Assembly (NCBI GenBank): GCA_951406725.2
Contig: OX597829.1
Location: 47,368,001 to 47,432,000 of the forward strand
Direction of reading: 5' to 3'
Length of the DNA stretch: 64,000 bases
Origin: Octopus vulgaris
Taxonomy: Eukaryota
Position 1 is the first letter of the stretch; each line of letters opens with the position of its first letter. Both the position numbers and the translations under genes were made by a program. A model generated the notes under the pieces. It was not told the DNA's origin, did not search any database, and saw only the letters and a list, made by a program, of their open reading frames with translations. Positions 5,295 through 57,745 of this stretch are shown here, piece after piece.

Positions 5295-5878
5295 ATTGAA
5301 ACAAGTCCGTCGTATATATGTGTGTGTGTACGTGTGTCTCTACCCCCCCCCCCATCGCTTGACAACCGACAGAATAAGTCCTGGGCGAGCTGGCAGAAAC
5401 GTTAGCGCACCGGGCGAAATGCTCAGCGGTATTTCGTCTGCCGTTACGTTCTGAGTTCAAATTCCGCCGAGGTCGACTTTACCTTTCATCCTTTCGGGGT
5501 CGATAAATTAAGTACCAGTTACGCACTGGGGTCGATATAATCGACTTAATCCGTTTGTCTGTCCTTGTTTGTCCTCTCTGTGTTTAGCCCCTTGTGGCTA
5601 GTAAAGAAATAGGTATTTCGCCTGTCGATACGTTCTGAGTTCAAATTCCGTCGAGGTCGACTTTGCCTTTCATCCTTTCGGGATCGATTAAATAAGTACC
5701 AGTTACGCACTGGGATCGATTTAATCTGTTTGTCTGTCCTTGTTTGTCCCCTCTGTGTGTAGCCCCTTGTGGGTAGTAAAGAAATAAGAATAAGTCCTGG
5801 GGTCAATTTCTTCGGCTAAAGGCGGTGCTCCTGCTCGGCCGAAGTCAAATAACTGAAACAAGTAAAAGAATAAAAGAA
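5295..5878 (+). mobile_element. SINE-A 3' part interrupted by the SINE-B dimer at 5384-5786
   Basis: catcgcttgacaaccga...agaataagtcctg | insert | agaataagtcctggggtc...gaaacaagtaaaagaat. Confidence 0.8.
5384..5786 (+). mobile_element. SINE-B dimer (tRNA head, Meta-domain-like body)
   Basis: ggcgagctggcagaa A-box region, gagttcaaatt B-box, gcctttcatcctttcggggtcgataaattaagtacc; 13-bp TSD agaataagtcctg at 5371-5383 and 5787-5799; junction at 5612. Confidence 0.9.
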
Positions 5879-6236
5879 TGTGTATATATATATATATAAT
5901 TTTACTAGCGTAGCCAAATACCTGCTGTGGTCGTACGATATTTATGCAAGATGGGGCCAGTGCGGTTTTGCAGTTTATGTATTGGGTAGGAGTGTGGAAA
6001 ACTCAGTTACGAAAGTTGGGGGTAAAATGTAAGAAACTTAAAATATGGGGAAAATATTTTTCAGAATTTTAATTTCCTTGGAAGCAAAACAGAATTTACT
6101 GGGAAAGCGAAAAAAGAAGATAAAAATCTCTCTCCTTTCTCTGTCTGATTGTTGTTATTCTAAAACCCTGCCCTGATTAGTTATGCGAACTCACATATTG
6201 AATATTAACATGTATGAAAAATTACGGCTCTCGGAG

Positions 6237-6403
6237 CAGGGCAGTCTCAGTCGCGTTATAGGCCCTGGGGTAAGACAATGCACTGGGTTCTATATTTATT
6301 TATTGACAGTAGGCTACAGCATACATAGACTAGTATTGGAATCCCACGTTCATACGTAGTCCAAGGTGACTGTCCAATTTATCTATGTCCTATGACGGCT
6401 CTG
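6237..6403. mobile_element. Short hAT-like MITE, degenerate
   Basis: Ends cagggcagtc ... gacggctctg; 8-bp flanks tctcggag / cttcgaag partly match. Confidence 0.4.
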
Positions 6404-7494
6404 CTTCGAAGCCATGCACATTAACTCGTATTTTCCTTTTGCACAATTTCACTGACAAGGGTTTGTGTAGACATGGTGCCATGGTTAAAAGTTCTACACG
6501 AGTTGAACAGTGAGAACGAATAACCTCCCGCCCCAGCACGCCCCCGCCTCACATAATGGTGAAGCGAACAATTATCGAAAACCGCTGGAATCAATATGGT
6601 CGCTCAGCCCACTGTAAAAAAAAAAAGGAACAACCGTTTCTCCCTGAAAGTTCATCCGCTAGTCCCTAAAAATTGGTTATGTTTTTGATATAATGTTACT
6701 ACAGCTGAACATCTTCGAGCGTCGTCTTTTCCTATTAGAGCTTCTCTAATGCTAAACAAACTTAATGAAACCAGTTGGGTTCATAAATATTCTGAATTTT
6801 AGATGTACATGTGATCTATATTTGTTTATTCACGCACACACACGCACTCATATGCATATACATATGTATACAACATGTACATGCGCATCTTGTACTTTTT
6901 GTGTATGCTTGTTGGCAGGTGTATGTGTGTATATATATATATATATATATATATATATATATATATATACACATACATACATACATATACACATACACAC
7001 ACACACGCCTACCTATCTATATAATCAAACTGAATATATTCATGAACACGTGTATATGTGATTCTTATCGCTGGTGACACAAATACAATGTAATGTACAG
7101 ATACGGGCAAGCACACTTTTTACAACATACATCATATACAGATATAGTCCTAAAGCAATCAACCACCAACACCCCCACATACACACACACACAAACATTC
7201 TGCTTCAGGCAATTGCTCATTTGTATCCACTTTGCTATATATTTAGCATCCGCACGAAATCCAAATGGCACTATTTGAAGTAACAATGGTAAAGCAATTT
7301 ATTTAACCCCGGGTTAATTACTGGACAAATTTATACTCTAAGACCATCTCATCACTTTAGGGGGTACTTAAAACTGTATCCTTTAATGTACCCTACACGT
7401 AAGATGGTGGGTTTAATTTAAGGAAAGATTTTACTAACTTTTTTGCCTAAGGCAAAAACGATGTGGTTGTGGTAGTTTTTGATATTAAATTAAC

Positions 7495-7924
7495 AGGCGC
7501 AGGAGTGGCTGTGTGGTAAGTAGCCTGCTTACCAACCACACGGTTCCGGGTTCAGTCCCACTGCGTGGCACCTTGGGCAAGTGTCTTCTACTATAGCCTC
7601 GGGCCGACCAAAGCCTTGTGAGTGGATTTGGTAGACGGAAACTGAAAGAAGCCTGTCGTATATATATATATATATATATATATATATATATATATATATA
7701 TATATGTATGTTTGTGTTTGTCTCCCCAACATCGCTTGACAACCGATGCTGGTATGTTTACGTCCCCGTTACTTAGCAGTTCGGCAAAAGAGACCGATAG
7801 AATAAGTACTATGTTTACAAAGAATAAGACCTGGGGGTCGATTTTCTCGTTTAAAAGGCGGTGCTCCAGCATGGCCGCAGTCAAATGATTGAAACAAGTA
7901 AAAAAAAAGAAAGAAAGAAAGAAA
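7495..7924 (+). mobile_element. SINE-A full length
   Basis: aggcgcaggagtggctgtgtggtaag (A-box), ggttcagtccc (B-box), CORE-like ccttgggcaagtg, internal (TA)n, tail ...gaaacaagtaaaa. Confidence 0.92.
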
Positions 7925-8337
7925 GTATGCATGGTAATGAGCATCTATGCTATTTAATTTGATGAAAAGAAGAAATATAACTTTAAGCAGCATCTCTACA
8001 CGTGACTGAGACAAAAGTACCTAGATGGCGCCTAGCTATAGATAGATAGATTGATTGGTTGATTTTAATCGGAAACGAAATTCAGTCGAACAGTGTGAAA
8101 TTCTGCTACTTAGCACTTCCATTAATTCTTAATGAACGAAGATCTAATCTGATTGTTAGACATTAATGCTGGATATTGCGATATTGCTAAACATTTAAAT
8201 CGATGTAGTCCCATTCCGCTAAGCTCAGCGGTACAAGGTCTTTTTAGCTTCAAAGCACTCAGGAAATATATAATAATTTAAGAAAATGTAAATATAGAAA
8301 ACTGTTGTTTATCTTTGTTTTATTAACCATAATTGTG

Positions 8338-55085: not shown

Positions 55086-55520
55086 TGGTTTCAAATTTTG
55101 GCACAAATCTAGCAAGTTCGGGGAGGGTGTAGGTCGATTACATCGACCCCAGTACTCAACTGGTACTTATTTTATGGATAGGCAATGATAATCCTTTCTA
55201 CTATAGGCCTGAAATTTTGTGGAAAGGGACTAGTTCCAGCGCTTGACTGGCACTTATTTCATCACCCCCGAAAGGATGAAAAGCAAAATCGACCTCGCCG
55301 GAATTTGAACTCAGAACGTAAAGCTGAAAGAAATGCCTCTAAGCATTTTGTTCGATGTGCTAACTGTTCTACCAACTCATCGAATTAATAATAATAATTT
55401 TGGCACAAGGTCAGCAAGTTCGAGATGGGGTATAAGTTGATTACATCGACCCCAGTTCTATACTAGTACTTTTTTTTATCGATCCCGAAAGGATGAATGG
55501 CAAAGTCGACCTCAGCGGCA
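55086..55520 (-). mobile_element. Three degenerate tandem SINE-B pieces (tail 2)
   Basis: Repeated ttttggcacaa / gattacatcgacccc / cccgaaaggatgaa. Confidence 0.75.
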
Positions 55521-56527
55521 TGTGTTAAAACCAGTTATTGAACCGACGACGTTAATGAGGTCTATTCGACCGAAACATGTCTTTCTTCCTGTCCGCAAAT
55601 AGAGCTAAAATTTCTATCGAAGCATGCAAAATAATTTTGCTGCATGTGGCGCATCACTGCTTGACTTATGTTGGTACTGCAACTTTGTCCCGGGAAAATC
55701 CTGGCCTAACAGACTTGTATAGATTGTATACATATTTATTTGTCCGTTTGCTTTTTCTCTACGCAGCGTACCTCGACAGACCACAATATCTAACAAGCCT
55801 CTAAGTCTTTAAAGAAGTGTTTAATTTGAGAGAGATTCTGTTGCTATTTTTAGCAGTTCCATTAGCCACACAGCTGCTCTCTTTGGCTCGAAGTAATGTA
55901 TGCTGTATCGTTAGACGAAACAAAAAAAAAAAAATAGCCGAATGCACAGCTCAAAATGTTAACTTCTACCTCGTTTAATAAGAGGTCATATGCAAAAATG
56001 AAATAGGCCGTCTTTTGTATACGTGACAGATCAAGTTTCAAGGAGGTTATAGCTTAAAGTGTTTTGACGTGACAAGATAAAAACTATTTCAGGTTTTGCA
56101 GAAACTGGCGGATTTATTTTATCTATTCATTCCCCGCCTACTCGAGGGAGTACATCGAAATTTTCTGTAAATATGCACAATATGGTAACGAAGTGAATGT
56201 TTGGTAACCGGTATTTATTGGCACCCAAGAACCACATGCCCACGATTATCCTCTTATCTTCAGAAAATAAGCCAGTCTTTTCCCTCAGTGACATGTTAAC
56301 TTCAAAGAATCCTTCATTCTTGGGATTATCTCCCTTTCTCGTGTGCAGCTGATCCTAAGCACCTTTCATTAATTATGATACATCCACCAGAGACGGAGGA
56401 TGATATTAATAAATCAAGAATTTGTTATATAGTATTTGATGTACCTGTATTTGTCTGCATGTTCTGCTACGGGTCATCACTGGCCACTCTGAGTTGGTTC
56501 TCTTAACTGAGTTTTGTTTAAATGGTA

Positions 56528-56916
56528 CAGTCGTGGTTGTGTAGTAAGAAGCTTACTTCCCAACCACACGGCTCTTAGTTCAGTCCCACTGCGTAGCACC
56601 ACGGACGAGTGTCTTCTACTATAGCCTCAGCCCAACCAAAGCCTTGTGCGTGGATTTGGTAGACAGAAACTGAAAGAAGCCCGTCGTATATAGGGTGTGT
56701 GTGCACGCGTGTGTGTTAGTCCCCTGGTGCCGCTTGACAACGGAGTTTGTACGTTTATGTACCCGTAACCTAGCGGTTCGGCAAAAGAGACTAAGTACTA
56801 AGCTTAACAGAAAGAAAAAAAGAAAAATAAGTACTGGGATCGACTCCTTTGACTAAAAATAATTCTTCAAGGCGGTGCCCCAGCATGGCCGCAGTCTAAT
56901 GACTGAACAAGTAAAA
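56528..56916 (+). mobile_element. SINE-A, diverged full length
   Basis: gttcagtcccactgcg...ggcggtgccccagcatggccgcag. Confidence 0.85.
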
Positions 56917-57330
56917 GGTACACACGCACCTATACACATACATACGTGTGTATGTATGTATGTATATATATACACACACACACACACACACACACACACA
57001 CACACACACACACACACACACACACATACACACACACATATACACACTAATGTGCATGTGTATAAACACACACACACACACACACACACACACACACATT
57101 CACTTTGTCTACAGATTTTTCTAAGGACGCAAGCACGGCTGTGCAGTTTTTGCTTCGTAAGCAACGCGGTTTTAGGTTGGGTTGAATCATATTAGACGCG
57201 ACACCTCAGACGTGACGTTGCCATAACCTTAGGTCGGCCCAAAGGATTATGGCTGAAATTTGATAGACGGAAATGTCGTGGAGGTGGTGGTGGTGGTGGA
57301 GGTGGTGGTGAGATGCTGAGTATATTTAAA

Positions 57331-57745
57331 GCGGCGAGCTGGCAGAAACGTTAGCACGTCGGGCGAAATGCTTAGCGGTATTTCGTCTGCCGCTGCGTTC
57401 TGAGTTCAAATTCCGCCGAGGTCGACTTTGCCTTTCATCCTTTCGGGGTCGATAAATCAAGTACCAATTACGCACTGGGGTCGATGTAATCGACTTAATA
57501 CCTATGTCTGTCCTTGTTTGTCCCCTCTGTGTTTAGCCCCTTGTGGGTAATAAAGAAATAGGTATTTCGTCTGCCGTTACGTTGTGAATTCAAATTCCGC
57601 CGAGGTCAACTTTGCTTTTCATCCTTTCGGGGTCGATAAATAAAGTACCAGTTGCGCACTGGGGTCGAAGTAATCGACTTAATCCCTTTGTCTGTCCTTG
57701 TTTGTCCCCTCTATGTTTAGCCCCTTGTGGGCAATAAAGAAATAT
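57331..57745 (+). mobile_element. SINE-B dimer with a single TSD
   Basis: tatatttaaag on both sides; junction at 57561. Confidence 0.92.

Follow-up and report, generated by a model that had tools for sequence, protein, structure and literature searches.

Results

The window and its SINE family

The window, a stretch of 64,000 nucleotides of the Octopus vulgaris genome (assembly GCA_951406725.2, contig OX597829.1, positions 47,368,001 to 47,432,000 of the forward strand), comes from a single individual and was studied through its sequence alone. This AT-rich animal DNA (37.7% GC), rich in microsatellites, harbors a short interspersed element (SINE) whose unit of 228 nucleotides (nt) combines a head of the transfer RNA (tRNA) type, a shared body and one of two tails: a young tail 1, which ends in AAAGAAATA, and an older tail 2, which ends in (ATT)n. 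The 37 profile matches to this unit, distributed over both strands of the 64 kb, describe a short (<1 kb), interspersed and high-copy repeat. The subject of this report is the way in which its young copies are joined to other copies. Among the 18 tail-1 ends of the window, a count also obtained with nhmmer, seven (at six loci) read AAAGAAATA followed directly by GGTATTTCG, exactly and with no indel, and each of them enters the downstream unit at position 45 of 228.

The family bears the two marks of target-primed insertion, namely target-site duplications (TSDs) of variable length (9-18 bp, clear at 6 of the 15 loci examined) and 5' truncations, with copies beginning at unit positions 14, 69 and 87. 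No simple repeat follows any of the 18 tail-1 ends as a feature of the element, whereas tail 2 has its (ATT)n. SINEBase counts the tail as variable, so that tail 1 is still compatible with a tRNA-derived SINE. The unit may be the octopus OR1/OR2 element. A search for motifs of the unit in some of the supplementary files of PMC4824008, PMC4758252 and PMC5804259 gave no informative match (papers are cited here by their PubMed Central identifiers).

Scans of genome contig collections returned no copy from outside the window, and protein searches for such copies gave 12 distinct matches. Antisense fragments of the family occur in two proteins of Octopus bimaculoides, at 67% and 83% identity; these entries, P0003 and P0012 (an uncharacterised protein and a kelch-like protein), are gene models containing the fragments by exonisation or annotation error.

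Junctions and multimers

The seven junctions lie at 5612, 13268, 13450, 24182, 27369, 51377 and 57561, exactly where an earlier note on this DNA had placed them. An eighth, partial case is found on the minus strand, where the tail of a 5'-truncated tail-1 copy (10916..11085) is followed by GGTATTTCGT at 10925-10916, ten bases matching the start of the junction, and then by unique DNA. In the window, every copy that starts at position 45 has a tail 1 ahead of it, and no tail 2 is joined to position 45. The arrays comprise three units at most; arrays of at least four similar units, in the manner of a SINE-derived satellite, were not seen.

The six multimers, all on the plus strand, are named D1 to D6. 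In the dimer D1 (5384..5786), a head, body and tail 1 are followed by a headless unit with tail 1, with core differences of 1/111 vs 6/109; the whole is embedded in an element of a second SINE family. D6 (57331..57744) is a dimer of two tail-1 units with different subfamily haplotypes. As the earlier note had read, one TSD surrounds each of these two dimers as a whole: the 15-bp AGAATAAGTCCTGGG at 5371-5385 and 5787-5801 for D1, and the 11-bp TATATTTAAAG at 57321-57331 and 57745-57755 for D6. D4 (27136..27526), the clearest nested case, consists of an old head of the tail-2 type, a young body with tail 1, and an old tail-2 unit. In D5 (51147..51537), a tail-1 unit precedes a unit with a young-type body and a tail 2 ending in (ATT)n. 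D2 (13126..13624) is a headless trimer composed of a 5'-truncated unit with tail 1, a second unit with tail 1 and a unit with tail 2; a TSD was looked for at this locus and none was found. The reading of tail 2 at the ends of the units at 13450 and 51377 was correct, and the unit at 27369 ends likewise.

In the last dimer, D3 (23952..24300), the downstream unit runs into a palindrome and stops near unit position 165. The upstream flank of D3 resembles unit positions 153-168; internal priming at the right end was considered and dropped, the palindrome being inserted there. The palindrome itself (24301-24435), which cuts off the 24182 unit, is near-perfect over 135 bp (fold z score -19.7) and MITE-like (miniature inverted-repeat transposable element); it is matched a second time, in part, at 47831-47886. 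The D3 copy at 23952 stands head to head with the copy at 23591-23804, 147 bp away. A second head is absent from all five headed multimers, and their 5' joins are seamless.

Head and tail of the unit

The nucleotide at which the junctions enter belongs to a hairpin of the head, GGCGAAATGC-TTAGCG-GTATTTCGTC, illustrated here with D6 (57362..57387, plus strand), in which the first base of the target 9-mer GGTATTTCG is 57377 (unit position 45). The arm has a stem of 11-13 bp, and the junction base is the last base of the loop or the first base of the 3' stem. As an RNA fold the hairpin reaches a z score of about -2; as DNA it is weak (z -1.9 and -0.9). In the same copy, the sequence displays an A-box-like segment at 57340..57351 and a B-box-like segment, GAGTTCAAATTCC, at 57402..57414, both on the plus strand. 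These labels follow the type-2 promoter consensus of RNA polymerase III (Pol III), and the spacing between the two segments exceeds the usual tRNA spacing by about 19 nt. ARAGORN found no tRNA anywhere in the window and Rfam none at these SINE copies. A canonical tRNA with its anticodon loop was rejected on these grounds and on the roughly 19 extra bases of the arm, which is an extended arm; by eye, the junction also falls away from the places where tRNA splicing or IRE1 would cut. The term "anticodon-like" applied earlier to this loop is consequently apt by position and fails as a statement about a tRNA. A snap-back origin through a GAAATA/TATTTC mini-hairpin at the junction was also rejected, its fold being no better than that of shuffles.

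Tails 1 and 2 have in common a stem-loop of 4 bp around CTTGT, with compensatory changes and a constant spacing to the 3' end (57536..57548, plus strand, in D6). In the alignment, 75% of the cells are paired, 14 changes are double-sided, none of 500 shuffles equals the structure and it beats all slid controls, all of these controls leaning in its favor since the structure was derived from the very sequences tested. This stem-loop is likely a binding site for the protein of a long interspersed element (LINE). A run of four T is absent from 10 of the 15 tail-1 units examined, and the others carry one at scattered, private positions. Most tail-1 units thus have no such terminator-like run, and Pol III would be expected to read past the tail.

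In tail 2, the segment that follows GAAA and two further bases is (ATT)n, and several tail-2 copies are stacked head to tail behind one another's (ATT)n tails (11859-12337, 26926-27761, 31843-32121 and 55079-55524). This stacking follows the same principle as the proposed nesting of tail 1, with a simple repeat in use. The stack at 26926 adjoins an inverted rearrangement of a tail-2 copy at 26777-26986.

DNA found after the free tail-1 ends

The 11 tail-1 ends that are not junctions were compared with the target 9-mer in a fixed register, two bases after AAAGAAA. In these free ends, 51 of the 99 positions compared agree with GGTATTTCG, where 25.4 matches are expected from random positions of the window and 26.3 from local shuffling; no resample reached 51. 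Once the perfect case is removed, 42 of 90 positions still match (P about 2.5e-5), and with or without it GGTATTTCG ranks first among the 442 9-mers of the unit. Register 0, with its 51 matches, exceeds each of the 44 registers obtained by shifting (18-38). The signal peaks at positions 2-7 (RTATT), and a purine occupies position 2 at all 11 ends, compatible with G-C or G-T pairing. In several cases the bases compared are target DNA, since they form the TSD. The loop site is therefore the top-ranking member of the DNA target spectrum that the tail-1 family ordinarily uses, and this places the choice at the DNA target and not at a cut in the RNA.

Individual monomers illustrate this spectrum. 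The tail of the copy at 59459..59689 (plus) is followed by one extra G (59690) and by the 9-bp TSD GTACAAGCG, which in register gives GGTA, and the TSD of the copy at 17774..18003 (plus) starts from register 0. The flank of a minus-strand copy at 59808..60033, GATATTGCG, equals the target 9-mer at 7/9 positions. The copy at 23591..23804 (minus) is followed by GGTTTGT, and that at 37140..37364 (minus) has an intact GGTATTTCG head that has not been hit.

A subfamily of four minus-strand monomers carries a C45 head (loop TAGCC) and was hit in no case: 11373..11601, with a ragged 3' end and a 15-bp TSD; 28767..29001, with a ragged end followed by GATAATT; 52056..52279, within a TA repeat; and 59808..60033, mentioned above. 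Ragged 3' ends characterize three of these four copies vs none of the 14 others (P=0.005), and the source of the C45 subfamily may carry a different extension.

The main rival to an RNA-guided insertion, a rival that we regard as unlikely, is a nested insertion whose site would be set by a preference of the partner endonuclease for NRTATT combined with local exposure of the DNA (hairpin extrusion, Pol III bubble or TFIIIC tethering), with no guide. Such a preference would suit the concentration of the free-end consensus at positions 2-7, the TSDs of most monomers, which begin at or beside register 0, and the insertion of tail 2 likewise in TATT-rich DNA. It would also suit the fact that heads with GGTATTTCG are hit in 4 of 6 cases and other heads in 0 of 6 (P=0.03). 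Sequence taste, measured with a position-wise weight matrix of the free ends, nevertheless gives the 23 resident loop sites only 0.3-1.2% of the target weight, against 7 of 18 insertions observed (P <= 1e-9). Self-hits so far above the prediction of at most 1.2% require more than a short motif. The junction does stand at the apex of a hairpin, as exposure would have it, but this hairpin is weak as DNA. Moreover, the extra G at 59690 and the ten bases at 10925 fit an RNA extension, and the seamless 5' joins of the five headed multimers require homology anyway.

Age order and haplotypes within the multimers

The earlier note had offered two origins for the multimers, insertion into the family's own head or a cut of the RNA in the loop followed by template jumping or circular templates. 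The ages of the units bear on both. At six of six loci the core of the upstream unit has diverged less than that of the downstream unit (17/735 vs 42/627 differences in total, P=8e-5), and the order remains six of six when subfamily sites are counted otherwise. The locus at 27146 provides the most direct view: the D4 head differs from the young majority at 7 of 44 sites (6-12 in tail-2 copies) and carries the tail-2-type A31 and A33, the middle core has 4/111 differences, and the downstream core 11/95 plus 2 gaps. The head is therefore as old as the downstream unit, and the two surround a young insert, as the earlier note had noticed.

The haplotypes are equally informative. Old-type states reappear in the downstream units from positions 54-72 onward at all six loci, so that the switch is bounded close to the junction. 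In D2, the units at 13268 and 13450 both carry the tail-2-type T58/T60; this is like a target duplication of at least 16 bases, inside the 9-18 bp range of the TSDs. The same T58/T60 haplotype is found in the translation of an outside copy, P0002, together with an intact head and a tail 2, which makes it a native resident type. The downstream unit of D6 has rare states in common with a C45-headed monomer, which suggests overwriting or mosaicism. Among monomers alone, four gametes are observed in 25 of 78 site pairs, some of which may be due to recurrent mutation.

These data were confronted with the possibility that the junction formed just once or on a few occasions, the multimers being retrotransposed whole-unit copies, or DNA expansions, of a few masters. 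An invariant junction (7/7), a single TSD around D1 and D6, a headless trimer D2 that resembles a 5'-truncated unit copy, and G218 in 6 of 7 inner units vs 2 of 9 monomers (P=0.04) all speak for masters of this kind. The downstream cores are nevertheless 15.9% apart, where inner units differ by 7.3% and monomers by 7.4%, and the six downstream units have no common derived state and two tail types. Units so unlike one another exclude a single dimer master, the very outcome that the earlier note had named beforehand as fatal to its proposal. The in-register match at unique sites and the old D4 head would also be left unexplained. A few masters are accordingly improbable as the general explanation, even if whole-unit copying from some of them likely contributes.

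In the second of the two origins, SINE RNA would be cut at the loop and, before insertion, attached to another tail through ligation of the RNA or through template jumping, or else would form circles. The fixed position of the junction and the lone TSD around the outside would be compatible with this, R2 is known to perform template jumping (PMC11194090), and RtcB ligation has a precedent in U6/L1 chimeras (PMC6789731). A free position-45 end would be expected on this account to start copies in unique DNA and to follow tail 2, neither of which occurs here. Circles would yield identical units and no head; in reality the units within one array differ at 8-20 sites, including subfamily sites, and are therefore not duplicates or rolling-circle products. 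Neither the free-end match nor the matched ages of D4 is predicted. No ribozyme was found by Rfam in the window, and no hammerhead core near any of the seven junctions. An HDV-like (hepatitis delta virus) ribozyme was tried and rejected: P1 forms with 6 of 7 bp (GGTATTT/AAATTCC), but P3 fails in all five units tried. This second origin is very improbable.

Recombination at the DNA level deserves equally little credence, whether in the form of tandem duplication, of a 184-bp circle that reintegrated or of ectopic gene conversion with a junction-bearing locus as donor. High copy number and mosaic haplotypes would favor it, and unequal recombination has been proposed for the SINE-derived satellites of reptiles (PMC10702118), but every switch lies close to the junction (positions 54-72, six loci) despite 120 bases of homology. 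Tandem duplication would give like units, whereas those of D1, D4 and D6 differ at subfamily sites.

Other repeats of the window

Two young copies stand tail to tail, 118 bp apart (59690-59807). A second abundant SINE-like family of about 20 copies possesses an internal (CA)n/(TA)n tract (for example 7496-7919, 53395-53865 and 60476-60885); no fixed-site multimers of this family are apparent in the BLAST listing. A weak Rfam tRNA match at 8339-8411 on the plus strand (29.4 bits, gathering threshold 29) probably corresponds to the head of yet another, third SINE family. Very long (600-760 bp) imperfect (CA/GT)n microsatellite arrays occupy 29465-30229 and 35491-36106.

Discussion

A proposed model of guided self-nesting

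The pattern is real and unusual, and is best read as self-nesting by target-primed insertion, with a probable RNA guide. In its explicit form, to which we give somewhat better than even credence, the tail-1 SINE multiplies by target-primed insertion into older copies of itself, guided by the pairing of read-through RNA with the target. The protein of a partner LINE would bind the CTTGT stem-loop, and reverse transcription would start at the last A of the tail. RNA transcribed from a locus that bears a junction would continue past the tail into GGTATTTCG and the body, and this RNA beyond tail 1 would take the priming role that (AUU)n would play for tail 2. By pairing with a resident copy at GGTATTTCG, the read-through RNA would fix the register. 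Unique sites would offer 3-9 matches to such pairing and a resident SINE up to 120 or more bases; this far longer homology would account for the large excess of self-hits. As the RNA extension would have the same sequence as the target, a single-base junction would result from any priming point within the first 13 bases or so. Precision to the nucleotide therefore need not indicate a site-specific cut, an assumption that has to be dropped from the first of the two origins proposed earlier. The insertion into the family's own head that it also proposed is supported by the age order, the head at 27146, the shared tail-2-type start and the 9-mer match of the free ends.

At the other end, the 3' end of the complementary DNA would re-anneal to the homologous strand of the resident, giving a seamless 5' join with no second head and leaving the old head and the old TSD outside. 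A homologous 5' join of this type would explain both the missing second head in five headed multimers and the mosaic haplotypes of the monomers. The borrowing of the resident A box, which had been suggested before, would be a by-product of this putative join. Each event would recreate a source locus bearing a promoter and a junction, together with a mosaic haplotype, and whole-unit copying of such sources may have produced some multimers, for instance the headless trimer at 13126. It is possible, although doubtful, that the SINE is obligately self-nesting: the simple-repeat tail would have been lost, the active sources would be those that bear a junction, read-through RNA would serve as a built-in guide and insertions into unique DNA would mostly be dead ends.

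Several observations weigh against this model. The free-end signal is mostly the RTATT core, obtainable from nuclease preference alone; positions 8-9 add little (2/11 and 4/11), and free ends do not separate pairing from cutting preference. The 9-mer tested was taken from the same window, with n=18. No reading frame of a partner LINE is evident by eye among the 108 open reading frames of the window, and a clear junction was seen in none of the 12 outside proteins, P0009 being at best a degraded candidate. The age gap is narrow in D3 and D5, and whole-unit copies of a dimer would inherit the same gap. The heads of D3 (0/44) and D6 (1/44) look no older. Pooled multimer heads are only marginally older than monomer heads (10/204 vs 7/319, P=0.075); compared with inner cores, they give P=0.048.

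Relation to known elements

Seamless homologous 5' joins are a property of R2 elements, non-LTR retrotransposons specific for ribosomal DNA. In R2Ol, downstream target sequence present in read-through RNA raises the accuracy of insertion, and 100 bases of it sharply raise efficiency (PMC6795142). In R2Ol and R2Bm alike, read-through RNA anneals to the target and sets the start of reverse transcription (PMC6795142), as the octopus SINE would in our model. R2 differs in being autonomous, with a sequence-specific nuclease and a host gene as target, whereas the octopus SINE is non-autonomous and targets itself. Nearly all copies of target-specific elements such as R2, R1 and Tx1 occupy one site; the octopus SINE has 7 of 18 at its site and 11 of 18 in unique DNA. 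Clustering of Alu within Alu offers another parallel. Pairing of the RNA 3' end biases target choice in L1 and Alu, and in L1 a complementarity of about 10 bases governs priming (PMC3649969), much as octopus tail-2 copies stack behind (ATT)n. The proposed pairing segment of the octopus tail-1 SINE differs in being a unique 9-mer internal to the head instead of a simple repeat, and its product has no second head. An Alu-type dimeric family has one fixed left-right pair; six different downstream units with two tail types are found here.

OR1 and OR2 are reportedly tRNA-derived SINEs of octopus, said to have been described by Ohshima and Okada in 1994. They resemble the present element by a tRNA-type head, a conserved body, a LINE-like tail and their occurrence in Octopus. 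The available parts of PMC4824008 and PMC4758252 list them as octopus CORE-SINEs and do not mention fixed-site multimers. Stringent LINE/SINE pairs of the L2 type (UnaL2, ZfL2) have a 3' stem-loop with a conserved loop and a variable stem, to which L2 proteins bind and which the CTTGT stem-loop resembles (PMC4176376), but octopus tail 1 is devoid of a terminal repeat. Penelope-like elements form partial-tandem loci and start reverse transcription inside the RNA (PMC11167929). Their initiation site is non-homologous to the target and they contain a hammerhead ribozyme (PMC11167929); the octopus SINE has neither trait and displays TSDs of 9-18 bp. More generally, retrozymes, Penelope-like and circular-RNA elements place a self-cleaving ribozyme at the unit boundary, and none was found here. 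The SINE-derived satellites of squamates are tandem arrays of partial SINE units, as here (PMC10702118), and Dada and Tx1 target multicopy Pol III units or small-RNA genes (PMC3706591, PMC8869645). In contrast to these satellites and to Dada and Tx1, the octopus arrays are made of two or three units of unlike age, are dispersed and flanked by TSDs, and have the element itself as target.

No report of fixed-site self-nesting SINE multimers was found in searches of full-text literature, most subscription papers and the 1994 octopus SINE paper being outside this coverage. Homology-aided priming, nested SINEs and partial-tandem elements are each known; what appears to be new is that one SINE combines them and targets a single internal site of its own at a high rate.

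Implications

If the model is true, this family provides a natural example, at high copy number, of non-LTR (long terminal repeat) insertion steered by RNA-DNA homology instead of by a specific nuclease. With 7 of 18 self-hits in one window, the genome should hold very many events, enough of them to measure what priming homology, nick position and 5' joining each contribute to the choice of target. Mosaic SINE subfamilies would be explained without a master-gene tree, and libraries of monomer consensus sequences would mis-date the family. The model would further single out a LINE for which the RNA beyond the tail may determine the target. Should the SINE be obligately self-nesting, homing into its own head would regenerate its sources and shuffle its haplotypes, and its target would be reprogrammable through that same RNA.

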